Shown here: positions 1-35,698 of the stretch, one piece after another
Position numbering within the stretch: the first letter of the stretch is position 1
How the letters are laid out: each line of letters opens with the position of its first letter
Source: Amoebophrya sp. A120
Lineage: Eukaryota; Protista; Dinoflagellata
Assembly (NCBI GenBank): GCA_905178155.1
Contig: CAJINV010000012.1
Location: forward strand, 115,389 to 179,388
Reading direction: 5' to 3'
DNA length: 64,000 bases
Position numbers and translations under genes: made by a program
Notes under the pieces: generated by a model
What the model saw: the letters and a program-made list of their open reading frames with translations, nothing else
Databases searched by the model: none
What the model was told of the DNA's origin: nothing

Positions 1-2697
1 GGACGACCCCTTCTGTATTCGCACCCCGTTCTGGTATTTCACAGCCACCTCCTGTCCTGGCTTGCCCTCTATTCCATCGCCGTCTTGCTGGCCCCGCGCC
101 CACGTCCCGTCATACACATGCCCGTCGGGCCTGCAGTTTGTAAAACGGACCAGGAAGTACTTAGCGTTACAATTCTGAGATCAAAGCACACTGCTTGTCG
201 TGGTTCCAAAACGAAAAATGCCCGTAATGAACCCTCTAAAAATGAAAATGAAGAGCACACGACCACGCATATTAGAGTGAATATGAGGACGACGCCGGCC
301 CTCGTTCCTCGCACTACTTACCTTGTGATCATAGGTTAGTACTACACGACGCATGATGAAACTGCAAAAAGTAAAGGCTGTATTATACCATCGCATCTTG
401 CCGCGCCCATGTCGGTGGTTCTCCAGGAAGTTGCCCTCGTTCGATATGCGAGCAAAACTCATCTTGTTTAACTCGAATGCCCCAATCATGAACTTGTGTT
501 GCACATATCGCTTCATGTTGGTGATCATACTCGTGGTGCCACTACCACACGGTAGAAGGTAGCAGTAGCTTCTTTCCTAACATAGGTATCACCAAATACG
601 CTTGTTCCGCATGACAAACATACATTTTATTTATTCAATTTTCATAGGAAGAAACTCGTCCGTTTTGCTTCATTTCGCTCACGTACATGCTCGCCCGTCA
701 TTCCACGTCTGCTATGAACTGCAAAAGTATCGTACTAGTAGTAACCAGCCATGCTCCGGCTGCCGCCGGAGCGCAAGGCTGTTGGGCCGGGGCAAGGCTG
801 TTTGCCGCTCGGACCACAACCCCACGGGCCTAGTAGGCACAACGAAACGCACTGGATTCCTGCCGTCGATTTGCGCCGCGCCAAGCCGCAGGACCACTTG
901 CGCGCCTCCCGCGCCTGTGGGCGCTCTGCGCAGGGAGCAGCTGCAAAAAACGCCGGGGGCGAACAGAAGCCGCATGGCGGGAGAGGGTGGCGCGGGAGGG
1001 TGGCGCGAGAGGGGTGCGCGAGAGGGTGGCGCGAGAGGGTGGCGCGAGAGGGTGCGCGAGAGGGTGGCACGGAAAGGCGCCGAACAAAACAAGTCCGCGA
1101 ATGGCCTGCAGTGCGAAATATGGGCACTACCATGCGGATTCGCGCCCGCTTCTTTGTGCTTTTGCCCTCTCGCAGACCTCTCGCAGACCCTCTTTTTGGC
1201 CTCTTTTGGGGGTCCCCGCTAATAATCCGGCTATACTCGCGGGTAGAGGTCGACAGAGGTGGCCGAGAGGTGGCCAAGAGGGTCCGCGAGAGGTCGCCCC
1301 TTATTCGCAGCACCTCTCTCCACCTCTGTCGACCTCTCGCGCCCCCTCTTTTTGACCTCTCTGCGCCCTCTGTGCCACTTAGGCGGCGCCTAAGGGTGGG
1401 CGCTTACTGCGGGCCTTATTCGCGCACCCTCTCGCGGACCCTCTCGAACGGGGTCCCGCGCCACCTCTCCACCTCTGTCGACCTCTTTTCTACCTCTGTC
1501 GACCTCTTTTTTACCTCTCGGCCACCTCTCTGAGACCCTCTGTCTACCTCTTTTTTCGCATGAATATAATGTATAGTGATTGCAATACAAATTAGCTCAG
1601 CATGACAAATGGAATTTGTCATGCTGTTTTACCTTGAGAACGAGCTTTGTAATGCATAAATGCAATTACTACGAGTACGATACTTTTGCACAGGATATCT
1701 GCTTCCCCACGCCGATTTCTCCAGGGAAAAAATCACTTTTTGTGAGCAAAAACAATAAGATGCATATTCGTTTTTTTGTATGTGCGCCGAGGAAGCTCTT
1801 CTATGATGATAGAGGACATGCTGGCTCGAATATCGTGCATGACAAACAAACGGCTCAATGTAGAAGTGCTTGATGTAAAGTTATTTTTTGCCTCTGGATA
1901 GATGCTGCATGGAGTTGAAGAATGTGCCGTCGTACGTTGATTTCAGGCTCTTGTAGACACCTATAGTATAATTATGTTGTTGTTGGCTTTGTTTGCAGGT
2001 ACACATCATTTCATGATCATGTGCTGAAGCAGCGCAGCTAGCAGTTTCATTTTCATCATCACCAGCATCAACAAGTTCGCGCTTCAAAAAAGTAAGTACT
2101 TCACGCCGCTCTACTGCACCAGCTGGCCTTCTTCAAGCATGACACAAGCATTTATTTCCAGCTTTCAGCTATACCTCTCCCTTGTATGATGTCGTTTTGG
2201 AAGTCGCCCTCGTATTGGCTTCCGTCCTCCCAAACGTACTGACCCCTCCCGTGCTTCATGCCGTTGACATACTCGCCCACGTAGACAGATTTATCCTCGA
2301 ACCACACTTCGCGGCCTTACTACAGTGAAAAATGCCCCCACCCCCAAAGTTGCAAAAAATTATTGTGATGCGAAGTTTCCAAATGAAAACCTTTTGCCAT
2401 GCATGAAAGGAGTATGAATCTTTCTGATGCAGAGTCTAGGCGTGTATCGCATCGTTTGCATGACAAGTGCCACTCTTGCTGGGGTCTTTTGCAATACAAA
2501 TTTTTGCTATTCACGATTAGAAACCTGTGATGCTGATAGATGCAAGAGGGCAGATGTTTCATTTGGAAAGGTTTGCAATACAAATGCTCCCAAGTTCGGG
2601 GGTGGGGGCATTTTTCATTGTAATAGGCCTCTCCCATGCTTCTTGTCCTGCATCCACTGTCCTTCATACCTGGAGGTCGAGTTCGTGTGGGGCGTAT
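1..2697 (-). CDS. MORN-repeat protein paralogue 1 (multi-exon; 5' start unresolved, 3' end runs off the window)
   Basis: Joined exons read YEGQWMQDKKHGRG-REVWFEDKSVYVGEYVNGMKHGRGQYVWEDGSQYEGDFQND...QHGVGKQTWNDGRAYEGNFLENHRHGRGKMRWPDGHVYDGTW, which are MORN repeats. Confidence 0.8.
445..685. mobile_element. Degenerate introner (predicted GT-GA intron 441-686)
   Basis: Imperfect TIR TATGCGAGCAAA / TTCGCTCACGTA; internal GCATGACAAA; removing 441-686 gives GRA|YEGNF in frame. Confidence 0.6.
713..1697. mobile_element. Introner family A, interrupted by a nested insertion
   Basis: TIR core TGCAAAAGTATCGTACT / AGTACGATACTTTTGCA; TSD TCTGC. Confidence 0.85.
743..1573. mobile_element. GC-rich nested insertion with GAGAGGGTG / CACCTCTC repeat arrays
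   Basis: Splits the family A consensus; possible TAGT duplication; repeats in both orientations. Confidence 0.7.
1718..1900. mobile_element. Degenerate introner, H-like
   Basis: TIR TCTCCAGGGAAAAAATCACTTT / AAAGTTATTTTTTGCCTCTGGATA; removal restores MQH|GVGKQ. Confidence 0.65.
2318..2625. mobile_element. Introner family F
   Basis: TIR TGAAAAATGCCCCCACCCC / GGGGTGGGGGCATTTTTCA; TSD GGCCT. Confidence 0.85.
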
Positions 2698-3405
2698 TTT
2701 TTATACATTTATTTTCATATGCATAAGCGTAGGCGTTGCTTTTGGTTTTGCTACAGCTACTTGCGAAGCTGCATAATCTACTCTTGTTTCGGAAAACAGC
2801 TTGTATTTTTCTAATATTGTGATTTCACACCGACGACGAGCAAGCTGATGGAATCGTCCGTGTCCACCCCGCCGCGGCAAAAACTTCTACGAAGAACTTG
2901 TTCATCTTGTAGTTGGTTCGACTTGCCAACCGCACCAGTTCTTGCTGGGTTCTTTCTCGGCGGGCGCCGGCTTGCTGGTCCTGCTCTCCTTCGTTTCTCG
3001 TTGCTCTTGCTCCGCCTGCTGTCGGATCATGTAGTAGTTCCGATGCCGTTACGGCAACGGCTGCTCTCTACCGAGAATAGTGATCAGCTTTCCTACCGCG
3101 AAACAACCGTACGCGTACTAGGTCCGGGGGGCTACGAAATAAACAGGTTCTTGGACGTGCTTTGGTGTGATGCAGAAGCGACAGTGTCGTGGCTCGTCAA
3201 ATAAGGAACTTGACCCGCTTGATGTTCCTCGTGCTGTGCTTTGCTTTGGTCTTTACTTCCACAATTTTTTTGTTCAAGAAGGCTGCTGCACCGATAACCG
3301 ATAACCGCAGATCAGGATGAGGTACTAGAGCAGGTTCAGCTCAAGAATAGAGATGTTCATCCGGGAAGGACGTCGTCGGCTTGGGATCAACATCTTCTGG
3401 CACAA

Positions 3406-6400
3406 CTAGACTTTCACCAAAGCTAAGTAACCGCCCTTCCTCAGGTACTCTTCTTGCTTTGCGGCGGGGGTTTGCTTTTGCTTCTCCCGTTCCAGCCAGG
3501 GGCTGCTAAACTCCAAATCGACCGCCCAACTCATCAGCAACCGGGCCCATCTATGAAGGCGTCAGGATCGAAATCAACAAAGTCGAAAAAATCAGGAAGG
3601 CAGATCATAGTCCTGAAAAGGGTTGCGAGTTGGGCTGCTGACTAGCATGACATAAGGGAGCCGAGCTCTTTGGCCCTAAACTACCGCATGACAGATTCGC
3701 TTCGAGAACGGGGAAAGTCTACAAGAACTGTCCCGCGCCGACTACAAACTGCAGGTCTAACTGGCATCGATTTTGTGCATCACATTTTTTTCGATTTTGT
3801 CGATTTCGAACCTGACACCCCCATACCACCCGCTGCGTCCGTAGTCTCGGCCGGCGTTGAAGTAAACCGTGTCGGAAGTCGTCTCTTCCAGCCATCCGCA
3901 ACTGTCGATGCACGCCGGCCCGAGAAAAAATTTCCCGAATTTTTTCGTGTGGCAGTGGATCAGCGCCATCGTTTGGACGTCCGCGAAGGGGTTCAGCGCA
4001 TCGCCGTACCGTCCCAACCCCGCGTGCTCGATGGAGGAGTAGGAAAACCACATGTCATATCCACTGCAAAAAGCATCGCACTCTTAGTAATTGCATTTAT
4101 ACATTACAAATTTCTTTCTCAAGACAAATCAGCATTACAAATAATTCAATTTGTAATGCTGGGCTAATTTGTAATGCAGTTTATACTAGTGCGATGCTTT
4201 TGCAGTTCATATGTCAAAATCGAAAGACACATCGCTCGTCAGTAGCTCGTGGAAAAACAAAAACCGCCATCGCTTGTGGGGGTATCGGGGTTGTATCGAC
4301 GTGCTTTTCTTCTCGTCGAAGACTCCGTCTAGCTCGTCCGGATGCCCCTCCACGGGTGGTTATGCATTACAAAAGCATCATTACTAGTAGTAGAAATCGC
4401 ATTACAAATAATTCGGTCAGCATGTTGACACATGGAATTTTTTGTCATGCTGTTTTACGTTGGGGTAGAGATAATTTGTAATGCATGACTGCGATTATAA
4501 TTGCTACGAGAAGTGCGATACAATTTTTGCACAGGATAGTGGTTTATCCTGTGCAAAAGTATCGCACTCGTACAAATGCTAATGCAAGTCTTGCATTACA
4601 AATCTTGTTTCCACGGCAAATCTGCATTACAAATTTTATTTCTCATGCTGAGGAAATTTGTAATGCATTTATACGAATACGATACTTTTGCACAGGATAG
4701 TGGTTTCCGGTAGTCAACCGTGGTTACGATCGCGGTGGGGAAGCTATCACATGCAAAAGTGTCTGGGTCTGGAGTGTTGCCGAGTTTGTCATGCATACTT
4801 TGCATGACCCAGGATGTCTGTAATGCACGCCCTAGCATCACAGATTTTTAGATGGCTTCCTGATGCCTACTCCGCATGACAAATGCTCTCCCGCCCGCGT
4901 AGCACCAACTAGACTCCTCTTGCTGGTCATGCAATACAGATTTTTTTAGAGTCCAAGGTTAGCATCACAAGTTCCAACCTTCCAGACCCAGACATTATTG
5001 CATTTGATAGAAGCGGTACAGCAGCAAAATCTCCATCCAGGGCTGCTCACTGCCCAGAACCGCGATTTTCAAATTAATTTCCTGCTGGCCCAGCAACACC
5101 GTTTTGTCGTTCTCGTTGTGCCAGGTCTATCAAAATGAGAAATCCCCCCGCCCCATATCAAAACGGAAATTTGTGATGCTGCTTCGTGGCCACAAATCAG
5201 CTTTGTATTGCAGAGAGGAATGGCGGCCAGATCCCCAGGCTAGGTAGGGGCTTATGTGTCTAGTTGTTCAGCATGGCAAACGGCTCCCCTTTAGGCCTAA
5301 CAGCATGACAAACCGCCTCCATAATGGGGCGAAAGCTTCTGCCCTTGTCTTCTTGCAAAACAGATGTGATTTGTGACCTCAAATCCGCAACACAAATTTT
5401 TGGACACATACCTTTTCAATGTGGGGAGGGGGGATTTTTCCTCTCAGTAAGGTCTTGTTCGAATTCGCGAAAAACGTATCGCGGTTCCGCATGATCGCCG
5501 CGTCAAGAATGAAGACCGTGTCGTCTTGGTAACTGGAAACGGTTTCGTTTACGAAATGGAGATATGCATTGCAGACGTATCGCGCTAGTATAAATTGCAT
5601 TACAAATCGACTTACCATTACAAATTGAATTTCTATTGCGGATTTGCCTTCAGAAAAATATTTGTAAATGCATAAACGCAATTAAAACGAGTGCGATACT
5701 TTTGCACTGCATAGGAGAAACACCAAATCGCTGTCCGTCCAGAGATTCAGTGCGTAGTCGCGCTTGAGCGCTCTCTATGAGATGCAAATGTGTCTGGGTC
5801 TGGAAACTTGTGATGCTAAAATGTGCACGATGAAAACGCTTCCGAATGCAGTCCGGCTTGACAACTTCCCAAAACGCTTTCTGATATGCAATCCGCATGA
5901 GAAACTGTGTTTTTGCATGACAAAAGAGGCTGCGACTTTTGTTGGTTATGCAATGCAGATTTTCTAGGTATGGAAAGCTAGCATTACAAGCTCCAACCTT
6001 CCAGACCCAGACATTTTTGCAATGCATACTCTCTTTTCCAAGATGTTGCGGTAAAGTTTCTGCTTGGTCTCCAGCGCAATCCGTCGGTTTTCCGACAACC
6101 CAGCGTGTCATGAATTGCAAAAGTATCGTTATCGTATTCCTATTCGGATAAATGCATTACAAATTTCCTCAGCACGAGAAATGAAATTTGTAATGCTGAT
6201 TTACCTTAAGAGATGAATGAGAAAGATTCGTAATGCATGACTGCAATACGAGTGCGATACTTTTGCACAGGATACGTGTTGCATCCACCCGAAAGGATTG
6301 CGGAGCAGCAGTTTTCCGAAGGTCTGCGCGTTCCATTTGTGCGACAGCTCTTCCTGGAGTGGCGGAGCGATGGGACGATTGTGGTCTTCGAATTGGGTAG

Positions 6401-9400
6401 TTTCCTCGTTGGCGAAAGAGCCGGGTTTGTAGTCCTCTTGCATCTGGTCGCCTTTCTCCTCGTCATTGTTCTCTAAATAAGAAGGTTTTGACGTACTAGA
6501 TTCTACTCCATCATCATGAACATGATCCCCCACGACCTCTCGTGCCCAGCTGTCGTTACTGGACTTCTGCATGTAGAACGCGTTCTTCTTTACCGCTTTT
6601 CCGTACAGCAAAAGATCGCGTCGGTAAATTTCTGGGATCCTCAAGGGCGGGGGCCACAGGTGCGACTCGGCCATGCGAAGCCCGGGGGACTGCTTCAACA
6701 GCTCGCACTTGGGGTAGACCAGTTTTTCGCTGATTTTTTCCATAATTTTCTCGTCTACTACTTGGTGGTGCTCTTGCAGTTGTTCCGCATTCGATCCTAT
6801 CTCGGTAGAACTTGCTGTGCCGCCCTGCTGTAGTGGCTCTTTATCCGCCACAAGTTCCCGCTGATAGTAAACGATCTCCCGACTCTGCACCTTATTTCGG
6901 GCGATTTCCCCACTGCAAACGTCCTCCCCGCACCCGATCCGCTGCAATGGTGCGAGTCTCTCGTAGTAGATCTTCGCTACATTGTCCATGAAATCCCCGA
7001 TTTTGGACGCCAGGTGGGCGAATTCCTGTTGGATGCGGAAGAGTTTGGTGCGCAGTTCGAAGATGTTTTGCTTGTAGAACTTCGCTATAACAAACTCGTC
7101 GATGTACTCCAACTCGTCTTCAATGGATTTCCGCAGCGAGGAGAGTAGTACAGCATTGCTGTCGTCACAGGGCGGGTCATCATGTTGTTCCTCGTGTTCT
7201 TGGCCCTTTTGCTGCTGTTCGCCATTCTGTAGTTCCTGTCCGGCATTGATTCGCAACCTTTGTTGTTGAACAAGAAGAACTTCCTGTACTTGCTTCTCCC
7301 GCCCCGCTACCACGCTTTTCCTGAACTTCTGCAAATGTTGCCAGTGATGGTTGAAGTAGGTGGTGTGCTCGATTAAAGGGAGAAGGAAGGAATGAAGCGT
7401 GATCGGCTGTCGGTGAAATGACTGCTGCTCGTCCTTGTAATCCGTCCCTTCGTAGTTATTCAAGTTCTCGACACCCCCGAGCACGATCCTCGTCGGCGCC
7501 AAATTCTCAATTTCCCCCGCAACGTCCTCACCGGTCAGCAAGGTTGTGTTGGTAGTCGGCTCGAAAAATGCGTCCGCGCGCCGTAACGCCTGCCGGATCT
7601 GCAGCGCCAGGTCTTCGTGGGTCGAGAGAATTTTCAGGAGTTTGAACATTTCTTTTGGGTGGGTGTAGCGACCGGTCGAAAAATCATGCGTCTTCGCTGG
7701 TGGACGTCGACCAAGAACTTCTTGTGTGCCGCCGCTTGATGTTCTTGCCACCGGCCCAACGACCTTCGCAAATTCTTCGTCCGTCTTTTGCATCTGCTGC
7801 TCCAGCGCTGTCGCGTCGAATGGAAGGTGAGCGTCGTGTAAAGATGCAGCCGTAGCATGATCATCTCCTTCGTTATCAGAATTTCTATCGGTCGCATTCA
7901 CCACGCCGAGCGCTTTCCCCAGGTCAATCTTCGAGGCCACCCTTCCGGTCCTGTCCCGCCCGAGCCCGTCCGCGTCTGGTGCAGCGGCTGCATCGTTATC
8001 AAGTGTAAAAATGTCTGGGTCTGGAAGAATGCGCGATTTGTCATGCTTCTCTGGCATGAGACTTAAACCTGTCATGCAGGTTACCCAAGATCCCCAATTT
8101 CCTGTCATGCAAAGACGCAGTTTGTCATGCAGAATAGGCAACACCTAGAAGCTCAGAAACTTGTCATGCTGAGCCAGCACTTATGGCCTCCTCATGATAC
8201 GCCACCCAGCATCACAAGTTTCCAGACCTAGACATTTTTACATTTGATAATCGTCTTGGAATAGCAAAGCGGCGTACTGAAAAATGTTCATCATTTCTCC
8301 GCTTTGCTCAGCCTTCTCCAGCATCTCCTCTTTCTCCCATATCAAATGCAAAAGTGTCTGGGTCTGCAAGATTGCCAGGTTTGTCATGCACATTTTGCAT
8401 GACTCCTGATGTCTGTGATGCATGCCCTAGCATCACAGATTTTGTGAGGGCTTCCTGATGCCTATACCGAATGACAAATGCTCCTTCCGTGTACGCAAAA
8501 CTTGGACTCTCTTTGCTGCTCATGCAATACAGATTTTTTTAGAATCCAAAATCAGCATGACAAGTTGGATTCTTCCAGACCCAGACAGTTTTGCAGTTGA
8601 TATCCCAGGTGTGAGCCCGGTAGTCGTGAATCAATGTCTGGATGTTCATCCTGTCCAGTTTCGACAGTGATAGAGTCGTGCCGGAAGCTGTTGTACTAGA
8701 GGACTCTTTGTTCGAGCTCGACGTGCCCGCTTGGTCCTCCTCGTTTGTGCTTCTGGAGGACAATACGTCAGGACTTGCATGATCCGTTCCGGTTTGAAGA
8801 ACTGAGTCTGTGGTGCCTCCACCTGCGTCAATCCTACTTGTTCCCCCTTTCACCCCCAAAACCCGACGATCTGGGTACAGCAGCTCCACTAATGGCATCA
8901 AAATTCTCCGCAGGATATTCTGGTACGTCTCACACGCGAACCTCGCCACGTCCCACAAATTCGGTTTCGCGGCATGCACCGCTTCATCTACGTTCGACAT
9001 TTTCTCAATGCCAAAAATGCTGCCGTCGGTATTCTCCGAGCGGAGGCAGGCCTGGTTCAATTTCAGCCCGATGTTGACTTTCTTGCCTGATGAAGTAGAT
9101 GATGAGCCAGATGATGGGTTTTTTGATGACTCATGATCTCCTTGACTTCCTACTTCTCCTGGTGCTGTTGTCATGTGAGATTCCTGGTCAACATCTTCGT
9201 GCTGCTCCACTCCACCTGCGTCCTCAGATGTAGTTCTGGTTTCTGATGGGAGGAGGTTGTCGATCTGTCCATCAAAAAAGGCGTCGTCATCGCTGTCACC
9301 TACAAGAAGTTCCGCCATTCCCAGCTTTCCCAAGCAGTAGCTGAGTTCTATCCACTGCAAAAGTGTCTGGGTCTGGAAGAATCCAACTTGTCATGCTGAT

Positions 9401-10113
9401 TTTGGATTCTAAAAAAATCTGTATTGCATGAGCAGCAAAGAGAGTCCAAGTTTTGCTACACGTCGGAAAGAGCATTTTCCATGCGGTATAGGCATCAGGA
9501 AGCCCTCACACAATCTGTGATGCTAGGGCATGCATCACAGACATCATGAGTCATCCAAAATGTGCATGACAAACCTGGCAATCTTCCAGAGGACCCAGAC
9601 ACTTTTACATTTGATAAGTTCCGCGGTTTCGCAATCTATGGTCTTCGTGTACAGGGGTGTGTCCCAGCAGCACCGGTTGAAATTCAGAGGTGAAGATGTC
9701 ATGCTGGAACCGCTAGAAGTACTACTGCCCGGATTATCGAAACAAACGTCGTTTGCGTTCGGACCCTCTACACAGCAATTTTCGTAGTTCAAATGGACAG
9801 CCCAGGGGTCGGTGAAGCAGAAAAACTCATCCCGGTAGAAGGTTAACTGGCCGGAAGGCTGGGCGAGGGCGAAGAAGAAGATCATGATGTTGCTGACGGT
9901 CAAAATTGTCGCTGCGAGCAGGGATAGAACCAGCGGAAAGGGACGACAGCGACCCGCGCTTCTCGTGCTGGTCGTCCGGAATAGGATTACTGCCAGATGA
10001 GTAGTTGAGGGTTTGGTGGAGGTTCCGCGTCCGGAACAAAATAAAACCCCATTTCCTCGTGGTCCGCCTCTACTCCGCCTTCGGTGCCGCATGTGTTGCA
10101 GTCGCGGCGCCAT
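3406..10113 (-). CDS. Large membrane-anchored or secreted protein with C-terminal DUF268 (methyltransferase-like) domain; 12 introners
   Basis: After removing elements: IAVLGSEQPWMEILLL...VTTVDY...FDMWFSYSSIEHAGLGRYGDALNPFAD...KKFGKFFLG...VYFNAGRDYG, matching the DUF268 SSIEHxGLGRYGD motif; N-terminal hydrophobic segment; stop at 3406-3408; start codon uncertain. Confidence 0.75.
3552..3825. mobile_element. Introner family D
   Basis: TIR GTCAGGATCGAAATC / GATTTCGAACCTGAC; TSD CCATC/CCACC. Confidence 0.85.
4058..4211. mobile_element. Introner family A
   Basis: A-type TIRs; TSD TGTCA. Confidence 0.9.
4361..4538. mobile_element. Introner family A (left twin)
   Basis: A-type TIRs; flanked by GTGGT. 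Confidence 0.85.
4545..4699. mobile_element. Introner family A (right twin)
   Basis: A-type TIRs; flanked by GTGGTT. Confidence 0.85.
4745..5009. mobile_element. Introner family B
   Basis: TIR core TGTCTGGGTCTGGA / TCCAGACCCAGACA; TSD GAAGC. Confidence 0.9.
5128..5449. mobile_element. Introner family C
   Basis: TIR AAATCCCCCCGCCCCA / TGGGGAGGGGGGATTT; TSD AGGTC. Confidence 0.9.
5563..5713. mobile_element. Introner family A
   Basis: A-type TIRs; TSD GGAGA. Confidence 0.9.
5776..6028. mobile_element. Introner family B
   Basis: B-type TIRs; TSD CTCTC. Confidence 0.9.
6109..6274. mobile_element. Introner family A
   Basis: A-type TIRs; TSD CGTGT. Confidence 0.9.
7997..8249. mobile_element. 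Introner family B
   Basis: B-type TIRs; TSD ATCGT. Confidence 0.9.
8340..8602. mobile_element. Introner family B
   Basis: B-type TIRs; TSD TCCCA. Confidence 0.9.
9349..9616. mobile_element. Introner family B (inverted relative to the 8340 copy)
   Basis: B-type TIRs; TSD AGTTC; internal sequence is close to the reverse complement of 8340-8602. Confidence 0.9.
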
Positions 10114-10691
10114 GATCTCGGATCCGCCCGGCGTCGCCCTCTCGCGTAGAACTACGTCCTTTGTCAAACAATAAACAAAACCACGGACGCACCAGATAAG
10201 TACACGAGGTGGATGTCAAGAAGAAAACATCAAGACGGGGGCTTTCACAAAAACCAGGAGTAAACGTCGAAAGCTTTCATCCCGTTCAAGCAAATTTATG
10301 AAGCTGCAAAGAAAACGCAATACAAAACAGGAGAACGCCTACAACGAATAGGAGAAAGATAACATGTGGTCGTGGTAATGCAAGATAAAAACCGTTGTAA
10401 ACTGATGAGAAGCTACTAGTACTAGCAGCTTCACCTTCAGCTCATCGAAGACGTAGAACAGAAGGGGTTGCGTATGTCATCTGTGTGACGAGGGGCCCGG
10501 GGGACAAATAAATCAACGCCGTTGATGCGCAGGTCAGTAGAATGATATTGCAATCTAGCAGTAGTAGATGTTGGGAAATAATTGTGACTAAAGTGCTGAT
10601 GTGTGAGATAGCTGCGATCATAGGATTAGGCGACAACTAGAGACAGAATCACATTCGCAAGAAAAATCACCACAACCCCAATCAGATATCC

Positions 10692-11801
10692 TCAATCCCG
10701 TTTCATCCTGACTTTCCGTCTGTGTTCCTCAAATTCCACGACTTTCTCGTCCAAGAATCCCACTAGTGCCCGACTTCTCTCCACCGCTAGAGGGAGTAGC
10801 AAGTCGAAAATCTCCGTCGCTTCAATCTCCGCGCCAATCACTTCGGTTCCGCAAATTTCCCCGAATTGGTTCACGGCGAGAGTCACAACCCCGTCAGCGA
10901 GGAGCTCCTCCTGTCGGTTCATATCGGCGAGAAACAGTTTGTTGTTCCTAGAACTACTATTCCGGCCACTGCCGCCGTTCCCCAATCCATTCCCAACCGA
11001 AACAACTCCAAACGACACTGGAATCGGCAAGTGGTGAATGTTCAGCGCGATTGGCTCCCGTTCCTCCTTGGTGAAAACCTGCAAAGACCCGTCTTCCACA
11101 ATTTGGATCTGCTCCTTCCGAAAAGTTTTCAGCGCCAGCAGGCCCGCGAGAACACAGGCATCCACTAAATTCCCGTCGTTGTTTATCGCGATTACTGTGA
11201 CTGTGAGTTCCCAACACTTCTCGCCGGAAACTAAACACAACGATTCTTCGTCGATCGCATTCGTTTGCTTCAAGATCCGCTCGATCCGGTTCGTGATGCA
11301 GACGGTGTTGACACTGTTCGGGCTGTTTTGCTGTTGTTGGCCACCAGAGGAACTACTACTCTGCACGAAATGCTCGCCGTTCGCAATTAGCGGTTGAAAC
11401 GCGGAGTCGGCGATGCCGGAAAATTCCACGTTGAAGTTTATCCGACCCTGGTTCGGCTTATCGGCAGCAGGTTTCGTGATTTCCCCCCTGCAGATTCCGA
11501 AAACTTTCGTGCAGGAGGATGGTTTTCTGCTCGTTATTGCGATTTCCCCTGGTGTTCTTGCGGTAGCCGTGTTCATTTCATGATTATTCTCAAAGGTCAG
11601 CATCACGTGCCCCAAGTCGAAAACCTGCAACTTCGGTTCGCGGAATTGAAACGGGGATGTGCGGTTATCCAGTCGAAGGCAGGGCGTGTCATGGTTGGCA
11701 GTTTTCTGGTTATTTCTTTTGCTAGTAGTTTTGCCGTTCAGTAGTCCTTGCAACACCAGTCCCGGGTGGACCGGAATGCAGACGGAGGCTTGCTCGGACA
11801 T
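10692..11801 (-). CDS. RRP45: Exosome complex component RRP45 (EXOSC9), intronless
   Basis: RNase PH-like motifs LRLDNR, GRINFNVEFS, AIDEESLCLVSGEKCWEL, NNDGNLVDA, EREPIALNIHHLPIPVSF. Confidence 0.9.
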   Translation of the reverse strand: MSEQASVCIPVHPGLVLQGLLNGKTTSKRNNQKTANHDTPCLRLDNRTSPFQFREPKLQVFDLGHVMLTFENNHEMNTATARTPGEIAITSRKPSSCTKVFGICRGEITKPAADKPNQGRINFNVEFSGIADSAFQPLIANGEHFVQSSSSSGGQQQQNSPNSVNTVCITNRIERILKQTNAIDEESLCLVSGEKCWELTVTVIAINNDGNLVDACVLAGLLALKTFRKEQIQIVEDGSLQVFTKEEREPIALNIHHLPIPVSFGVVSVGNGLGNGGSGRNSSSRNNKLFLADMNRQEELLADGVVTLAVNQFGEICGTEVIGAEIEATEIFDLLLPLAVERSRALVGFLDEKVVEFEEHRRKVRMKRD

Positions 11802-12469
11802 GATTTGTCGCTTTCGTTGGTCGATGAATTTGTCGTGGTAAAAATGGTAAAAATCTCAGATGAAGAAGAAATAATTCCTCGTGACGAGAAGTATTTGCAA
11901 CGTCAGCGTGCTTCTCCTGCGGTCTTACTTGGTTCAATTATTCAAGAGTATCATGTTCCTGCGAGTGTTCATTTCGACTTCGATAGATTACAACGACGTA
12001 TTTGGTCGTACAGTTGATCTGTTGTACTTACTTCGTCGCAACAGGAACAGAGAACAGTGAAATTTTGGAGCGAGCCGAGGATCTTCTTCACAAGAAACAA
12101 CTTCGAGAGATTGGCATCTAAATTTGCGGATCCTTAGTTTTTATCGGGCTCTTCTATCCTTCTGCGCGTACGTATAGTACGATTTTTGTTGATCATTCAT
12201 CTTCGTCCACACTCAAATATATCGTTTTCATCTCTTCAGGATGGGAACCTCAAGATAGAATAGGGCTCGTGAAAGTCAAAGAAGGGAGTTGCAAACCACG
12301 TAAAGCCGCACGGTGGTGAAGCCAGTTCAGGAACCTGCCACTGTCATGACACTATCGCAACGGGAGGACGGGGCGTTCTTCTTTTCGTCGGACTATGCAA
12401 AAATCACGTACGGATGATAGTACATCTTCCGCGGGGGCCGGCGCCGGTGTGAAATCACAATTTGTACCA

Positions 12470-13172
12470 GTATGCATAAACGCATGACCAATCAACAACT
12501 GTCGCAACTAACATCATGTTCATGATGTAAAAAAGTATACTCTGATTCGTCGTCCCTCAATTTCCCTTGTCCGTCGCACTTGTCGTCTTGCCACTGCCCT
12601 TCGAAAACCGAGCTCTGGTCGGGGTAAACGTAGCTTCCAAACCCGCTCCGCATCCCCAGCTTCAAGTACCCCCGGAAAAAGCCGCCATCCGGGAATTTCC
12701 GCTCGATGTAGCCGGTTCGTGTTATTGGATCGTAAGTCGAAGAGGTGGACGGTGAGCCGGCTTGCTGGCTGTTGTACAGGGCCCTGAGATAATTCGCGTT
12801 TATTTTCATCTCGGATGTTGTAACAAAGGCTTTTGCCGCTTTTTCAAATCATAGCTAAATCAAGCTGCAACAGGTGACTGCATTGCGACCCAAATACCAT
12901 CGTGAAAGAGCACTTTCTGGTAGTGAAAAACACTTCTGTGCGTGTATGCTGTACAGAGTGAACCTTTTGCCGTCATACCCTCGGTGTTTGCTATTTTTGT
13001 TCTAGATCGATGAGAAATGTGACTGCAACTACTTCGTAGAAGAAGTACGTCATGATTGCAAACTAAATTTATACGCTCGCCCCGCGTCCCAACCTTCACC
13101 AGAAGTGACAAACACCGATTTTTGCTCGTCCACTTTGTCAATGGAGCAGCAGGCCGAGGTGGCGGCGCCCAT
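12470..13172 (-). CDS. MORN-repeat protein paralogue 2 (short; 3' end unresolved)
   Basis: Start MGAATSACC; exon FPDGGFFRGYLKLGMRSGFGSYVYPDQSSVFEGQWQDDKCDGQG. Confidence 0.6.
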
Positions 13173-13186
13173 GATGTTGCAGCTGC

Positions 13187-13395
13187 TATGCAAGAAAAAA
13201 ACTGTGTCAGTGTAAATTTGTGTTGCAGAAGATGCAACAGAGTTACACCTGTCATGCCAGACAGCCATGATGTCCTCTTTTCATGTGTGTTTTCCCTTAC
13301 AAACGATGCATGACAGGTTTTCTCTGTCATGTAGAGCAAATTTGTGACGCTGTTCCTCAAAGAAAGTTACACTTACACACTTTTTTTCCTGGATA
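13187..13395. mobile_element. Introner family H, in the putative 5' UTR
   Basis: TIR TATGCAAGAAAAAAACTGTGTCAGTGTAA / TTACACTTACACACTTTTTTTCCTGGATA; TSD GCTGC. Confidence 0.8.
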
Positions 13396-14556
13396 GCTGC
13401 TGTGTGCTTTCTTTTGCGATAAAAACCTCCGGTAAAAATGTCGGACTGGAGCCACAATGTTTTTGGCAGGTCGTGATTCGGTCGCTTCACAAATCGGCTC
13501 GGTGGTTACTTAGACGACATGGGGAGATGAAAACCTTTCTGCTGGTTCGGCAACAGGAAAAGTGCCACTAAACAAACATCATGAATGCGGTATTAAATCT
13601 TGCGAAGTTGCTGCTCACAAAACAAGTCAAACTCGATAGCTGCAAGGAAAATCACGTAAGTAGATCACCAAACACTCAAAATTAAGGACTAAACGCACAA
13701 GAGCTAGTACAGGACTGCGCGTCTAGTCTCTTCGTTGTCATAATTGGCCTCCCTTCGCTCTGGTGTGCGTTCGTTGGTTTGCTATGTTTGTATATGACAT
13801 AATTTTTTTTTGCGTTTTTACTTTGCTAGTTCGCTCGCCCGCCATTTGAGCAGTGCAGTTTCTCTCCACAAGGAATTTCAGCACCACCGGCAGGTCGTAG
13901 AACAACAGAGCTCCGCAAGGGCAATTCCCCTTCTCTGATGAAGGAGGCAGTCGCATCGACGCGGTGCAAGCACCCGTCGAAACCGTCAAACTACAGAAGA
14001 GATTAATGGTGTACAACAACTCGCATTCTGTGTCCGCAAGAAATGATGTACAATTTGGTGGACTTTGTTTTTTGAAACGGTGTGATGGCGAATATTGATT
14101 TCCACACAAACTAGTGTATACAACAGGGATCATGCGTAAGAATGGTTCTTGTTCTCTCGTACATGTTTATCTATAGGTCAATTTCAAAAACAAAAAGAAA
14201 CCACGCGAGGTAAACTTTCTTCTTGGAGATCATATCAAGGGTAGAACGACAACGATGGGTTATGGGGAAAATGAATTGTAAACTACTGGAATGAGTAGAA
14301 GAAAGCGAAGCCACATCCCTTCGGCTTTTTTTTTTGCATGTACAAATGCGGAGTGGAGTGCTGGCTGCTATCTTCTAACTCGTCCACTTCTCCATGATAG
14401 GGAAACAAATTGCTAAATGTAACTGTTGTAACATTGGATCAAAAGAGCCGTGGATTAATTGTTGCGTTGTGTTAAGGTGCTTAAAACTCAAGAGATAAAA
14501 TTTTCTTCGACCGGAAACGAAATGGAAATGCTTCCTCCTTTCATCCCGACTCCCCC

Positions 14557-16020
14557 TCACAAACTGTGGTTGAACGGAACGGCGGATAACTGCGAGCCGT
14601 TTTCGTAGGTAACCTTCTGCTTGTTTTTCCCACGGACCACCACGGTGCCGTCCCCGTGCATGTGCCCCTCTTTCCAACCGCCCTCGTAGCTGGAGCCGTC
14701 TGGCCAGGTGATCTTGCCCTGACCGTGTCGCTCGCCTTCGTGAAAGTCACCCGTGTAGACCTGTTTGGAAAATGAGATGAAATTACGCATGAAAATTGAG
14801 TTCTCTGTTGCATTTTACGCATGAGAGGCTGCAATCTCCTTCAATACTGTGCAGACTGTACTGTTACTGTATGCATAATAAATTTTTGATGACTAATGAA
14901 ACAAGAATAAAAGCCACTAAATTCTACCGCCCCATCATTGTAGGAGTAGGTCCCGCTTCCCTGCTGCAAACTGTCCACAAACGCCCCCTTGTACACTCCG
15001 TCCGTGTCGTAAAAAACCCCCTCGCCCTCAATCACGTCGTTTGCGAACTGCCCGACGTAGCGGGTCCCATCCTTCCAGATGTACTATGCATTGCAAAAGC
15101 ATCGTTATCGTACTAGTTGTGATTGCAATACAAATTCGCTCAGCACGACAAATGGAATTTGTCATGCTATTTTCATCCCTTGGGATGGAGATTTGTAATG
15201 CATAATTGCGATTACTACGAGCACGACACTTTTGCACCGGATATGTACACCCCAAACCCGTTTTTCATGGACGATTTGTGGTCCCCGATGTAAACCGTCC
15301 CGTCCGCGTGCCAGACTTCGAACCCGTCCCCCTGCTTTGACCCGCCCTGCCAAAACCCGTAGTAGAAGGACTCGAGATCCTTCAACGACCCCTTGCCGTC
15401 GCACTTGTCACTCAGCCACTGGCCCTCGTACACTCGGCCCTCCTTGCTGATGTACTTGCCCTGACCCCACTTCTTCTTGTCGATCATCTGGCCCTGGTAG
15501 TAGCTGCCGTTCGTGAAGGACTGCTCGGCGGCCGACGGGTCCTTTTCTGCTGGTTTGTTGGCGAAGACGTTTTTTCTGGACGCGTTGATGATTTCCTATC
15601 CTGAGTAAAAACGTCCCCACACCAGAGTTGTGATGCAAATCTGCATGCCAAAAAAGGTTGTCATGAGGAGCGCCATGAGAGGCATTGTCTCGTCGTCTTC
15701 TGGAATTTGCGATGCGATAATCTGCATGATATGCTAGATCTGTGATGCTGCTGAACTACCTAAACAGGATTACACTCTGAGGAGAAATTTGTCATGCCAA
15801 ATGACCAAAGCTGGCTGATTTGTCTAGCAGATTTCCCATCTTGACTCTGGTGTGGGGACGTTTTTACAAATGATATTTCCTGCAGTTTGTTCTTCCCATC
15901 CTCGTCTTTCAACTGTTTCAGCGCGTCCAGAACTTGCTGGGGAATCTGCTCGGGCTCGCTGCTGAAGCCATCAGCGGAACGCTTTTTCCCGTCCTCACAC
16001 GCGGAACACACGTTGCCCAT
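14557..16020 (-). CDS. MORN-repeat protein paralogue 3
   Basis: Start MGNVCSAC; repeats YEGQWLSDKCDGKG and YTGDFHEGERHGQG; two introners plus one GT-AG intron. Confidence 0.85.
15085..15243. mobile_element. Introner family A
   Basis: A-type TIRs; TSD TGTAC. Confidence 0.9.
15597..15875. mobile_element. Introner family E
   Basis: TIR GTAAAAACGTCCCCACACCAGAG / CTCTGGTGTGGGGACGTTTTTAC; TSD TTTCC. Confidence 0.9.
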
Positions 16021-16967
16021 TTTGATTCGAAGTTGTAGATGGGCGTTGTTATGAAAAGTGAGGGTTTGGTTGCTGACGAGTGAGAGTGTGCGAGGTGGTA
16101 AAATTAATATGGTACTTTCTTTACTAGAGCTAGACAGACAGACTCTCAGGCGCTGCTAGCCTAGTTTTAGTTTAGGAGGGTAAAATTGGGAATAGAATGT
16201 CGTGTGCCTGACCGGTGAAGAAGAAGATTAAAGTGAAATTTTGTTCACATTCAACGAGTAAGTAAAGACGATTTTGGTCTCTTCGTTCTACTTTCACGAG
16301 TAAGAGAGAACGAAGCCGAAGCTACGATTAGCAAACGGGGTGAGCATAGGCTCAAATTGAACGAGTTTTCGCTTTCTCACAGCCCGAACGAACGGTCGAG
16401 AGTACGATTTGGCATTACGACAATGCTGCAGGACGACCGAGCAACTAGCACGACAGCGTGTCCGAAAAATGTGTGCAGGTAGGGCAATCCGAATGTCAGT
16501 CACAATCCGAATGTCAGTCACGATGATGCAAATTCGATGCCTCCTTCAGAGACAGCACGCGCGACCATTCGCGTACCGTATATGTGCGACACGACAGGTA
16601 CGGATGCAAGCGGACCGACATTAAGGAATCTCATCTATTACGCTTCTCAACGATGAAGCAATGCTGCGACTTCTCTCTAGTTTTTAGCTTTACGCACAGG
16701 CACAAACCGATTTTTTCTGGTTCCTTTGTGCCATCTTTCTGTGAAGAACAAACAGCAGGCACGAGCGAGAATTATGCGAGTTCTCGCTCAATAGTTGTTC
16801 ACTGAAGCTGCTGCAGTGGCTGAATATTGGATGCGTAATCCGTATGCCCATGCTGCCGCGTTATGTCCATGTCGCTCCTTTGGTTGATCCTTGCGAAATA
16901 AATGCGAATCATGTCTATGCCATTACCACCTCAATAAGAGATGCTAGCTCGTTACATGAAATTCTTA

Positions 16968-25647: not shown

Positions 25648-27062
25648 CTACTTCCCGCCCGGCCCCACCAAGCTCCCCTGCGTGACCGCGTGTGAGATCG
25701 GGCCCTTCCCCGCACCACTTCCCGAACTCGCAGTGCTCTTCTTCGCCCCCGCTCCCGCACTGCCACTTCCTCCCGCCTTCTTCTCTTCCGCGTCGGCTTT
25801 CTGCTGCTGCGCTAGAAACGCTTTTTCGTCCTTCAGCTTCGCTCCCTGCCAGAAGTAAACAACCGATTCCCGCCCCTCCTTGTCGACAAAAATTCCCTTG
25901 CCGTGCTGCACGCCGTTCTTCCATTCCCCCTCGTACTCCCGATCGTCGGGCCACCACAGCGTGCCGTAGCCGTTCACAATGTCGTCTTCAAATTCACCCT
26001 CGTAGATGTTACCTGATGAGGGATTTTCATGAGAATGCATTTTGACTATAGTTTTGCTTTTACACCAAGGTGAAGTCAAACATAATCATCTTGCTTGTGT
26101 GCGACGTGCTATGCTTTATTGTTCTCGTCGTTTCATAGACATCAAAAGCTGCTGCTGCGGCCTACGAGCTGGTGCGAGAAAAGAAGCTAAGCATTTGCAT
26201 TCTATTACCACTTCTCCAGATGTATTTCCCCTGCCCGTGTTTCAAACCGTTTTCGAACTGCCCAATTATCCTGTGCAAAAGTATCGTACTAGTATAAATT
26301 GCAATACAAATTAGCTTAGCATGACAAATTGAGTTTGTCATGCTGTTTTAGCTAAGGAAGGCGATTTGTCATGCATATCTTGAATTAGTACGAGTACGAT
26401 ACTTTTGCAATTCATACCAATGTACCGTGTACGGTCGTCAAACCAGATCTCCTGGCCAAACCCTGACTTTTTCCCATTCACCCACTGCCCATCGTACTGC
26501 GACTGTTCGTCCTTAAACGTGCCCTCGCTGTCGTACTTATCATCCCACCAGTAGCCGGAATAGCTGATATTCCCCGACGTGTATTGGCACACTCCGTACC
26601 CATATCCACTGCAAAAGCATCGCACTCGTAGTAATTGCAACTATGCATGACAAATCAGGATTCTTAGCAACGTCAGCATTACAAATTGAGTTTTTCCTTC
26701 TGAGAAAATTTGTAATGCAATTTATACTAGTACGATGCTTTTGCAATGCATAACCCGCACCTCTGCCCGTTCTTGTTCATCTGCCCGATGTAGGTGCCGA
26801 CGTTGTAAACTCTTTCATCCTCGAAGCACTCACTGTAGTCCCGGTTGGAAGATTGCGTGTTTTTCTTCTGGAGTTGCTGGTACAATTCCTCATCCGTGAT
26901 GTTCTCATTTACCGTCTTGCTGTTGTGTTTCTGCATCGCCTTCATGTGGAGGATGAGCGGGTAATGGCGCGCGAACAGCTCCTTGGTCGTCGCTTCGGGG
27001 GCGGAGACCATTTCTGCGCAACACCCATCGGGCTGCGGCTCGGTGAACAGGGTTTGGCCCAT
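25648..27062 (-). CDS. MORN-repeat protein paralogue 6
   Basis: Start MGQTLFTEPQPDGCC; YDGQWVNGKKSGFG, YEGEWKNGVQHGKG; two A introners plus one GT-AG intron. Confidence 0.85.
26267..26416. mobile_element. Introner family A
   Basis: A-type TIRs; TSD CCAAT. Confidence 0.9.
26603..26752. mobile_element. Introner family A
   Basis: A-type TIRs; TSD ACCCA/ACCCG. Confidence 0.9.
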
Positions 27063-29144
27063 GATTTGATGCGGAAGCCACGTTTATTTATTCCGACAAT
27101 CGTACCGATTTCTGCGCGGCGTTCCTTCGGTGGTGAGCGGTGATGTCAAATTTGTCGATTCTGATCTAGTAGTCAGTGACAATCAATGTAGCTCAAAACA
27201 TCTACATCATGGTAAAGAGGGGAAAAAATGCATTTCGCTGGGGGCGCCAAGGTCAATCCTAGTGACGGGAAAATCTACGCTACTTCAACGACTTCCTGAT
27301 TGCTTATTTCGAGGAGTCTTATTGTTTGACGATGGGGAGGCTGCGTCAAAGTCAATTGCTGGACACGATTTTAGTACTTTTGGTTGCTGACATCAACGTC
27401 AAATTCTCTACACGACAAGTAGCAGTAGGGCAACTTGCACGAATACGACTTTCCTTCGCTATGATGTTGCACGATTTTAGTACGAAGATGCGAATTCATG
27501 ATAGTACACCATACCTCCATCGCACGAGGAGGAGTGAGGCAACTACGGTGATGACTAGTAGTACCCGTCTGACACTGACTTATTTAGTACACATACGCTG
27601 AATGATGTCTGCAGGGTCATGCTTCAAGGAGTGCTCAGGTTGAGATGGAGAATTGCCATTTTTGGGTACGATGGAGAAGACGAATCAGAATTACCATTTT
27701 TGGGTACTTAAATAGACCGACACGACACATCAAGATCTACTTCTCGATTGAACATACTGAGCTGTCACATGCGGAACACTAACGATCTGACGCAAAATGC
27801 TAGCCAGGGCGCTGCGCAATGATTCGCCGGCTCCCTTGATATAGCCGCAGCGAGGATGAAAAGCCGACGGCCATTTTTATGTATCGAGATACATTTCTCA
27901 CCTGTTGTTGACAAGCTGCTGCCATCTCCCCACTTTTGTCTTGCTGGGCGGATGATCCGCCCAGCAAGACAAAAGTCTTTGCTTCTTGAATCGCCCTTGA
28001 CAGTAAAACGAGCTGTCTATATTTCCAAAAAGTCATAAAGTTCATCCGAAAGGAAAGAAAAAAGTGAAAGAATTGCTCTCTATAGCAAGCTTTGGACCAC
28101 GAGATCATGAAAACTTGCGCAAGATCAGGCTCCTCTTTCTTTTTCTTTATTTTTGTACATGGAGTTTGTTTTGTTCATATCAATAGCGTAAGAGCTGCTG
28201 TAGGCTTTCGTGGCAGGCCAGGGTTCTTGAACTCGGAAGAGTCAAACTCTAATTCATCCGAGACGCGTCTCACACCAGCAGTTGGCAGTTTTTTACTATG
28301 CTTTTGTGTTCTTTAGGTTTGCAAAATCCAAAAGGTTGGCGGTCATTTGTAAAGAAGTAGCGAGGGCACCACAATAACCCTGTTGGCATGAACAACAGGT
28401 GTCTGTTAGTAATCGTCCACGAGAAAGCTCCGCGAGGCAACATTGAAGCCTGTGGAGAAGTTGATACCCTCCTTTATCCAGCGAGAAGTCTGTGCATCGT
28501 CTTCTTCGCTAGAAAAGGGTGCCTCAACGACCCCAGGCGCTCGCGACGAGCCCTACTAGCGCGACCGAGTTGAAGATGGGTCGATAGATTTCATCCCCCG
28601 CTTCTCTTCTCTATAGCTTTTAGATACTTACCTGGAGACCGCGCTCTCAGTTCTTGATGTTTACTTATTGGAAGTAGCTGTGTCAACAAATTGTCGTATC
28701 TGTGCAACAAGAAAGAAAGTGACGAAAGAAAAATCATAGAAGCGAATATTTACAGCGCAGAAGCAAAAAGTCAGTTTTTAGAGCAAACGAACAAACCTCA
28801 CGAGCTCTAGTATCATACACAGTTGCTTTATCTGATGAAAATCTTTTATGTCGGGATGAGTTAAAATCTCCCTGACCAGCCACGGCTCGATTACAACAAG
28901 AAACTTCTTTTGTTCGTCTAAAACCAAAACTACAAGACTCGGATACTTGTTCGAAACTCATTTAGGTGTTAGAGAAGGATGAGCACTACTGCTTCCCAGT
29001 ACAGAAACAAAGACAAGCACTAGACTGCTCCATTCCCTCATTATCTACTCGGCGTATTTGTAGTTTGAGTGTTGAGTTGCAATGTATTTCTCATAGCAAC
29101 TTACATTTTGTGCATTTTCAAGAACCACTCACGCGACTCTAATA

Positions 29145-32100: not shown

Positions 32101-32790
32101 AACGAAGAATGCAAGTTTGTCATGCTCGTCCCAAAAGACTCTTAAATCTGTAATGCATGAGCAGGAAAAAAGGCTCTCTCCTGTCATGCAAATATGCAGT
32201 TTGTTATGCGGAAAGCGAAACACGCAGGAGCTCCAAAACTTGTCATGCGTGGCTGCGTGTTGCAATGCGCCCACCATTGACAAACTGGCATCACAAGTTA
32301 AGTTTCCAGACCCAGACATATTTGCAGTTGATAAGGTGAGGACAAAGACAACAGCGCCGGACATCGGGTGACAAACCCGGACGTCGGTGAGGCCTGATAA
32401 TTTTCATAATTTTTTTCCTTCATACAAGAGCAATGCGACGTAAATGACCCCTGATTCCTCCGCAAGGAAGTAGTTTTGCGCACGAACAAAAGTTGTATCC
32501 AGCAAATATTTGCACCTACTTAGTACAGCACCTACTTAAGTAGAGCCCTACCGGCTCACAGAACTTTTTATACCTGCTTTCAGCGAGTAGAAGTCCCTGG
32601 CGGCGCGCTGTATGATCGTCTCGAATTCGATGACATCTTGTTCCGCACCGCAATTCAACGCGGTGAAGCCGATGATGTGGACAATTTCGCCCGTTCCGAG
32701 GCTGCATATGCAGGGGTCGTTCGGGTTGTATTTTGACGAACTCGAGACGGAGCGCTCACGAATGAGCTCGTCTGAAACAGGCTCCACCAT
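29145..32790 (-). CDS. CDO1: Cysteine dioxygenase with a long N-terminal extension; 7 introners plus 3 canonical introns
   Basis: YTRNL, CWPPHCQSSIHCHDRSSCW, LHRIEN and MHIYAP (3-His iron site plus the Cys/Tyr pair); frame continuous from MVEPVS at 32790 to the stop at 29145. Confidence 0.85.
29257..29474. mobile_element. Introner family I
   Basis: TIR TATGGCGTTCTCAA / TTGAGAACGCCATA; TSD CGGGG/CGGAG. Confidence 0.85.
30066..30321. mobile_element. Introner family B
   Basis: B-type TIRs; TSD CCTCG. Confidence 0.9.
30840..30995. mobile_element. Introner family A
   Basis: A-type TIRs; TSD CAACT. Confidence 0.9.
31061..31212. mobile_element. Introner family A
   Basis: A-type TIRs; TSD GGTGA/AGTGA. 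Confidence 0.9.
31393..31678. mobile_element. Introner family E
   Basis: E-type TIRs; degenerate TSD TGAAG/TGTCG; frame restored on removal. Confidence 0.8.
31738..31987. mobile_element. Introner family B
   Basis: B-type TIRs; TSD CGCTA. Confidence 0.9.
32070..32333. mobile_element. Introner family B
   Basis: B-type TIRs; TSD AGGTG. Confidence 0.9.
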
Positions 32791-35657: not shown

Positions 35658-35698
35658 AGATAACTTGAGCAACATGATTCATCTTGCTCAAGTTATCT
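35658..35698. repeat. Perfect 15-bp hairpin
   Basis: AGATAACTTGAGCAA ... TTGCTCAAGTTATCT. Confidence 0.8.

Follow-up and report, generated by a model that had tools for sequence, protein, structure and literature searches.

The introns closest to those described here are the introners of the marine parasite Amoebophrya strain A120; the host of the window is taken to be an Amoebophrya other than A25, likely A120 itself in view of the TAT repeats. More than 60% of the introns of Amoebophrya strains A25 and A120 are non-canonical, and passages of the published account give their borders as variable or unknown, the A120 splice sites being called 'variable' and the borders 'unknown' (PMC7789003). 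The window, that is, the whole 64-kb stretch of DNA analysed here, holds elements that resemble the A120 introners described in the parts of Farhat et al. (2021, PMC7789003) available to us: both have inverted repeats starting with TAT and followed by an A run, hairpins, repeated families and ends other than GT-AG, and the direct repeats of 3-5 nt reported over the A120 exon/intron borders have their counterpart in 5-nt duplications in the window. By these features the window elements are hairpin introners of the TAT…ATA type with duplications of 5 nt, which were already published as a class in 2021 (PMC7789003). Elsewhere, introns of the same architecture give circles, not lariats, in Euglena (PMC11282704), and the introns of Fritillaria borealis are TIR/TSD-derived and handled by an altered major spliceosome with U6/U1 methylation and U2AF changes (parts of PMC13326754 and PMC11282704).

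A single N-TAT…ATA-N4 register is not stated in the portions of the main and supplementary text of PMC7789003 at hand, and its figures 3, 4 and S19-S25 could show one. In the titles, abstracts and passages of the literature searched, with subscription journals outside its scope, we found no fixed register for Amoebophrya, and Amoebophrya is not mentioned in the part of bioRxiv 2020.10.14.339549 at hand. The elements are therefore known already, and a fixed register of one base before and four bases after the element appears to be unreported, contrary to the published 'variable' reading.

Elements, genes and RNA of the window

A profile scan combined with reading gave a catalogue of 58 elements with TA-starting arms in the 64-kb window; one of them (34074-35365) entered only after RNA had revealed the joint of intron 34070-35366. 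Arms of the A120 type are present: the TIRs open with TAT, and an A run follows some 8-11 nt inward. The 5-nt duplication is perfect in 40 of the 58 elements and mismatched in 18. Flanks matching at 4 or 5 of the 5 positions were found in 51/58 elements (shuffled mean 1.8, maximum 7), which is an upper figure since the first search favoured matching flanks, while the sixth flanking base matches in only 14-15/58. Single mismatches seemed over-represented at position 2 of the duplication (7/11 in the window), a finding that was dropped, as the metagenome loci have 3/19.

Four insertions have empty sites in a tandem exon duplication (58764-59774 versus 60082-60690; 318/347 identical after element removal), with the 5-mer present once in each. 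The empty sites document in part what would be the first step of the mechanism considered below, the insertion of a non-autonomous TIR element with a 5-nt duplication. With MITEs the elements share shortness, TIRs, a TSD of constant length and many copies, and a cognate autonomous transposase is reported to be absent from A120 (passages of PMC7789003). The families are repeated; metagenome assembly JACKZZ01 has 83 loci for one of them, and 58/71 focal copies there have perfect 5-mers (84 pattern matches, 13 without a usable far end). Altogether 121 metagenome elements passed and 98 were orientable, the unmasked version of the orienting method being correct in 33/36 callable window elements.

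The window genes lie on the minus strand and comprise MORN-repeat genes, RRP45, a gene with a cysteine-dioxygenase domain and a very long P5-type ATPase. For RRP45, the named relative that comes nearest is Amoebophrya sp. A25, at 34% identity. A frame of 3183 codons opens in the ATPase gene after removal of 22 elements and one canonical intron, whose acceptor is placed about 3 nt off, in frame, in our model; a search for annotated full-length ATPases, confined to 2000 residues, returned three matches only, all distant insect ATP13A proteins. Rfam gave no match over the window, and no snRNA gene was found in it.

The RNA evidence consists of assembled contigs (X4-X7) from one sample of one study, in which rare alternative registers would be lost during assembly. 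Their RNA nature was first guessed; they skip eight GT-AG introns and are therefore spliced RNA. The compared stretches, 1-16400 (X4) and 26450-46000 (X4-X7), contain 38 of the 58 elements, and joints were found at at least 19 of these. After model splicing, 27872-32909 measures 3012 nt, the length of the RNA contig. Raw-read runs with the same species label (X10-X12) each had 1-2 reads on 1-16400. Four joints (742 to 1579, 30097 to 31947, 30116 to 31946 and 30265 to 31946) link the interiors of repeat copies; the contigs concerned likely stem from other members of the family, and these joints were disregarded. For comparison we used the eight canonical introns verified by RNA, leaving out four more that were guessed from frames because their acceptors are ambiguous:

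131-388, minus strand: canonical GT-AG intron with donor GTATA, seen in RNA
1961-2174, 2670-12540, 12784-13074, 14761-14927, 29644-29776, 30383-30478 and 32394-32573: canonical GT-AG introns, seen in RNA

The splice register

We define k as the number of bases of the upstream duplicate that are retained in the message. A perfect duplication gives an identical message under all six registers, and only elements with mismatched copies are informative. Among the 18 mismatched elements, 13 lie in the RNA-compared stretches (at least 7 with a joint, 6 without one among the joints listed, namely 3552, 4545, 39098/39119, 41888, 44436 and 45207) and 5 lie outside. The earlier note had named nine sites for reading; three of them (445, 1718 and 31393) could be read in RNA, 39119, 44436 and 45207 are among the six without a listed joint, and 50388, 61730 and 62624 are outside the compared stretches. 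The features that bear on the register are the following:

441-686, minus strand: introner with GT…GA ends in a MORN-repeat gene (element 445-685); the RNA joint from 440 to 687 is free of ambiguous letters (contig depth 146); flanks GCATG/TCGAA; only k=4 fits
709-1698, minus strand: 990-nt introner with a long internal insert and a perfect duplication, register unreadable (element 713-1697); RNA joins 713 to 1902 with 10 letters between
1699-1713, minus strand: 15-nt exon between two introners, indicated by the letters between the sides of the joint and by an open MORN frame
1714-1901, minus strand: introner with CT…TC ends and the 3' motif AGA instead of ATA (element 1718-1900); RNA joins 1713 to 1902; flanks GCATC/AATCG; only k=4 fits
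4357-4700, minus strand: two elements in tandem (4545-4699 and 4361-4538), separated by 6 nt, which likely leave as one intron, judged from frames and predicted pairing
26599-26753, minus strand: introner with a duplication mismatch at position 1 (element from 26603); RNA admits k 1-5
29253-29475, minus strand: introner with a mismatch at position 2 (element from 29257); RNA admits k 2-5
31057-31213, minus strand: introner with a mismatch at position 5 (element from 31061); RNA admits k 0-4 and excludes a TIR-flush cut
31389-31679, minus strand: introner whose duplicates differ at positions 2 and 3 (element from 31393); RNA admits k 3-5
34070-35366, minus strand: 1297-nt GT…GA intron in a 3' UTR; RNA joins 34069 to 35367 with no ambiguous letters in 4/4 runs; only k=4 fits
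39094-39264, minus strand: probable true extent of the element given as 39119 (TIR element 39098-39263), with TAT ends and a 4/5 duplication
44432-44586, minus strand: introner in the P5-type ATPase gene; k of 1 or less would create a TAG
45203-45453, minus strand: introner in the ATPase gene with the 3' motif ATG; the protein favours k of 2 or more
50384-50652, minus strand: introner in the ATPase gene; k of 2 or more gives V, k of 1 or less gives G
61726-62052, minus strand: introner whose duplicates differ at positions 1 and 5, with CT…CG ends predicted from sequence
62620-62957, minus strand: introner with mismatches at positions 1-4, likewise predicted to have CT…CG ends

All seven mismatched elements with a readable joint among the joints listed admit k=4, so that the intron reads N-TAT…ATA-NNNN as the earlier note had proposed, and three sites (441-686, 1714-1901 and 34070-35366) fix it uniquely; k=1 is excluded by RNA at 5/7. 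If registers were random and uniform, such agreement would be expected with a chance of 0.001 for all seven sites and of 0.039 for the five that were not used in deriving the rule. At both 441-686 and 1714-1901, four bases of the upstream duplicate and one base of the downstream duplicate remain in the message, and the two elements end in TA(T/C)…A(T/G)A. The proposed GT-GA intron at 445-685 is thus borne out, as is the 4+1 register at 1718-1900; the protein argument offered for the latter, the MORN consensus QH|GVG, is obtained with k=3 as well as with k=4 and does not single out the register. Likewise, the stop codon invoked at 44436 does exclude keeping the downstream copy, and the more conserved residues at 45207 and 50388 do favour the upstream copy, but all three arguments need only k of 2 or more and do not pin k=4. 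The element placed at 39119 was probably mis-delimited and lies within the larger TAT-ended element 39098-39263, although both delimitations leave the frame open.

The third pinned site, 34070-35366, is absent from the earlier note and its joint was unpredicted; its flanks match at 2/5 positions. A stop at 36292 and, at 33455, a loose end resembling poly(A) enclose it, and the frames that run across it have at most 52 codons. Protein selection therefore cannot have set the register there. This bears on the alternative that the register varies or depends on the site, as published, with the agreement owed to chance or to selection on the protein. In its favour, Fig. S23 in the portion of PMC7789003 at hand puts the inverted repeats 1-5 nt from the splice sites, and three sites only are pinned. 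However, perfect duplications (40/58) leave six placements and give apparent variability by themselves, and with the 3' UTR site and the value of 0.039 for the five sites outside the derivation of the rule we regard a variable register as very improbable.

A hairpin flanked by direct repeats is a classic setting for template-switch artefacts of reverse transcriptase, and introners combine the two. Such artefacts can hardly be credited as the source of the joins, because three joins share no letter at the junction, long frames need the removal to open, and the same contigs also skip canonical GT-AG introns.

The published classification can be read in the same light. In Table S4 (PMC7789003), T occupies +2 in every one of the nine predominant non-canonical classes of A120, +1 may be any base, and no class has TA at either end. 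TA ends would result from flush or leftmost placement, so their lack gives indirect support for k=4. Eight of the nine classes have A at -2 (same table), which is how k=4 would look if the strand were misassigned but could also mark a second register, k=1.

We conclude with high confidence that the register is fixed as N-TAT…ATA-NNNN, cut one base before TAT and four bases after ATA, and its constancy at every readable site likely reflects a general rule. A first base other than G was seen directly at one pinned site only, 1714-1901. For the tandem pair at 4357-4700, removal in one step gives a frame of 1343 codons and removal in two steps shifts the frame; pairing is predicted between the two inner arms, and the tandem would fit a cut measured from a terminal motif as well as one measured from a stem.

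Recognition of the intron ends

Neither GT/AG ends nor the identity of the duplication can serve as the cut signal. At k=4 the 58 elements show 35 different terminal pairs with GT-AG in 1/58, and GY-AG is possible in any register in only 5/58; the acceptor dinucleotides of 156 elements (58 in the window and 98 oriented metagenome copies) are of all 16 kinds, with AG in 9/156. The flanks of the three pinned sites match at only 0-2 of 5 positions. The suggestion that the terminal bases are free is hence sustained in that GT/AG is not required (17/19 listed excisions are never GY-AG in any register), but not for position -1, which leans to G/C. Position 4 of the duplication, which supplies the final base of the exon as well as that of the intron, is G/C in 105/156 elements (p = 0.004 against a background of 0.557, before correction for five positions; the window alone is not significant), and the mirror position 2 is G/C in 86/156 (p = 0.036). 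Position -1 is loose rather than neutral.

What the elements do share is TAT at +2 to +4 (55/58), with T+2/A+3 in 58/58, a figure partly built into the search. As the earlier note had recognised, the TIR thereby supplies what local canonical donors have, since 6/8 canonical introns start with GTATA, and the donor motif equals the canonical donor of the host minus G. The likeness claimed for the acceptor, in contrast, does not hold: TA at -6/-5 occurs in 2/8 RNA-verified canonical introns and ATA at -7 to -5 in 0/8.

Predicted folding bears on whether the cut is measured from paired ends. Bases +2 to +4 are complementary to the other end in 54-57/58 elements and +5 to +8 in only 21-36/58; the outermost pair has p<0.1 in 6/19 folded elements, including 445, 1718, 31061 and 31393. 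At 34070-35366 there are five complementary terminal bases (duplex -4.1 kcal/mol), but the donor is predicted to fold locally instead. Single-base changes of ATA at -7 to -5 are tolerated, with AGA at 1718 and GTA at 2318 both spliced, and +2 to +4 reads TA(T/C). The idea of a ruler taken from the paired TIR ends thus keeps its fixed offset and needs qualifying as to the pairing; since the register holds where end pairing is predicted to be weak or absent, the anchor is likely a short terminal motif and not the end of a stable stem, as far as these models go.

We favour a hairpin-assisted host spliceosome that works without the G+1 and AG checks, to which, as a whole mechanism, we give a probability of about 0.55. 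After insertion, excision of one base, the element and four bases, as read in RNA, takes out one duplication's worth and restores the message without a scar; either orientation should work, both arms reading TAT inward. The arms are predicted to pair and so to bring the intron ends together. U6/Prp8 would then read U+2, A+3 and U+4 as in GTATA donors, with G+1 dispensable. In what is the weakest step, the 3' cut would keep a constant distance of 4 nt from the ATA that closes the element, perhaps by way of a short TAT:ATA pairing in place of the AG and G+1:G-1 checks.

Several observations are in keeping with a host spliceosome. The inverted repeats of A25, which were independently derived, start with TTA and two purines (passages of PMC7789003), so that T+2/A+3 would apply there too if A25 introns start at the repeat. 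U2, U4, U5, U6 and 83/89 spliceosomal proteins are reported in Amoebophrya genomes, with snRNP27 and U1 snRNA undetected (same passages), and in yeasts the loss of SNRNP27K accompanies +4U donors (part of PMC10581693). Intron 34070-35366, with a canonical-looking donor and a non-AG, in-register acceptor whose ends are not predicted to pair, looks like a hybrid, as expected if one machine handles both kinds. Against one machine, donor +5 is A in 7/8 canonical introns versus C/G in 52/58 elements, and the canonical acceptors have no ATA. A stable stem would also have to be unwound, which counts against the spliceosome, as do the weak context for a branch point at a fixed distance and the circles formed in Euglena by introns of the same architecture (PMC11282704). 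In a more speculative form, which we consider possible and less probable than the general scheme, a major spliceosome lacking U1 would have replaced the G+1 and terminal AG checks by TAT:ATA end pairing and a 1-and-4 ruler tuned to the 5-nt duplication, making any copy in any target and orientation an instant scarless intron.

The same register could also be produced by separate, Euglena-like machinery, in which paired TAT:ATA ends are recognised, cut and ligated at spacers of 1 and 4 nt without lariats. We know of no separate intron-cutting enzyme of this kind in Amoebophrya. The architecture parallels the 5'-N3CDG-/-CH'GN5-6|R code of Euglena, where spacer lengths matter (passages of PMC12501133). 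End-joining stems are predicted in 18/19 folded elements versus 0/7 canonical introns, the element families have little in common beyond the terminal three bases and self-complementarity, and both the undetected U1 and the absence of ATA from canonical acceptors point in this direction as well. Yet the resemblance of the donor motif to the canonical donor, likely in A25 too, counts against such machinery, and 34070-35366 holds the register with only five complementary bases; we rank separate machinery as the leading rival, less probable than the host spliceosome.

Finally, the spliceosome could measure the 3' site from a branch adenosine at -7, within the 3' TIR arm, much as some species keep a constant distance between branch point and 3' site; the pairing of the arms would then be incidental. 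A at -7 is found in 57/58 elements and 4/8 canonical introns and is retained in the AGA motif at 1718. However, element 2318-2625 is spliced with G at -7, complementarity to the 5' arm would by itself account for the A, and the usual U two bases upstream (T at -9) occurs in only 23/58 elements, so that the context for a branch consensus at a fixed distance is weak; an internal TnAC-containing motif lies at variable distances from the 3' end. A branch ruler is in our judgement unlikely, and the hairpin-assisted host spliceosome is the reading we retain.

Known systems and the 1+4 code

A fixed 5'-N|TAT…ATA-N4 code would mean that the borders of tens of thousands of introns are set by a precise rule. 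It tells which bases to mutate and where branch points may lie, and makes the splicing machinery testable. Because 1+4 equals the duplication length, any insertion site would be tolerated. Either outcome would be of note: the spliceosome may have been released from G+1 and AG, or splicing of the Euglena type may have arisen a second time, independently. If the reading without U1 and with TAT:ATA pairing were true, it would explain the invasion of the genome by introners.

U2-type introns have GT/GC…AG ends, which nearly all of the elements lack, while TAT at donor +2 to +4 is shared with the canonical introns of the host. Like classical introners (Micromonas, Aureococcus, Symbiodinium/Polarella), the window elements have TIRs and TSDs and splicing restores the message length, but classical introners carry or co-opt GY/GA and AG, so that only suitable targets survive, whereas neither G+1 nor AG is needed here (parts of PMC9860276, PMC11282704 and bioRxiv 2020.10.14.339549). 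Fritillaria keeps the preferred ends AG-AC and AG-AT (passages of PMC13326754 and PMC11282704), in contrast to the many terminal pairs of the window.

The closest parallel is found in the nonconventional introns of Euglena (Nomura et al. 2025, passages of PMC12501133), which are likely MITE-derived, have free terminal bases, occur alongside GT-AG introns and carry complementary trinucleotides at fixed spacers from both cuts, all as here. Their motif is CAG/CTG (CDG at +4 to +6) instead of TAT at +2 to +4 and ATA at -7 to -5, and their spacers are 3 and 5-6 nt instead of 1 and 4, which sum to the duplication length. Euglena has a purine at the first downstream exon base, where the window shows no preference (31/58 purine); the Euglena motif is unlike its canonical donor whereas the window motif resembles that of the host, and the two lineages are unrelated (PMC12501133, same passages). 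The window introners work like the Euglena code, outside that family.

Insertion history and nested genes in two host genes

The P5-type ATPase gene is interrupted by 22 introners, hairpin elements with TAT…ATA inverted repeats flanked by 5-nt duplications. Its open frame spans about 3180 codons and is much longer than the relatives found (1100-1300 residues). Within this region, a tandem exon duplication carries different insertions in each of its two copies, showing that insertion came after the duplication. For the element at 58850, comparison with the empty site (the paralogous exon position without insertion, carrying the 5-mer once) places the difference in the exonic, not the intronic, copy of its 5-nt duplication. 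In the MORN gene, a very long canonical intron, whose exon-exon joint is seen in RNA (contig depth 158), contains at least two genes on the same strand.

44000-63600 (-), P5-type ATPase gene
58764-60690 (-), exon duplicated in tandem, copies of about 360 nt with 92% identity
2670-12540 (-), canonical intron of the MORN gene, 9871 nt
about 2.9-10.2 kb (-), nested 1343-codon frame
10692-11801 (-), nested RRP45, intronless

Enlarged, paired and possibly composite introns

Four introners, 0.76-2.5 kb in size, are enlarged by long internal inserts and retain perfect duplications. For the frame to hold across a tandem pair of elements separated by 6 nt, the pair needs to be removed as a single intron, and joint excision is therefore likely; its inner arms are predicted by folding to pair mutually. 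A long 3' UTR contains a 1297-nt intron that may be rearranged or hybrid rather than a plain introner, because it encloses a TAC-ended inverted-repeat element and the 16-nt stretch at its 3' end occurs a second time at 35570.

713-1697, insert-enlarged introner, spliced in RNA
37977-38734, insert-enlarged introner
53416-55624, insert-enlarged introner
56271-58758, insert-enlarged introner
4357-4700 (-), tandem element pair
33455-36292 (-), long 3' UTR containing the 1297-nt intron
34610-34943, TAC-ended element inside that intron

Internal motif and metagenome relatives

Across 20.2 kb of elements, the internal motif GCATnACAA is present both ways round, with 67 and 61 occurrences; it is absent from 7.0 kb of RNA-supported exons, and one canonical intron has two copies. 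The motif may serve as a site for the transposase, as a splicing signal, or as both.

One metagenome assembly, JACKZZ01, carries this introner family, again with 5-nt duplications, at 83 loci (L001-L083), among which no window match exceeds 330 nt. Position 5 of the duplication, the first intron base, is A in 41 of the 98 oriented metagenome elements and in 14 of the 58 window elements, where base usage is even.
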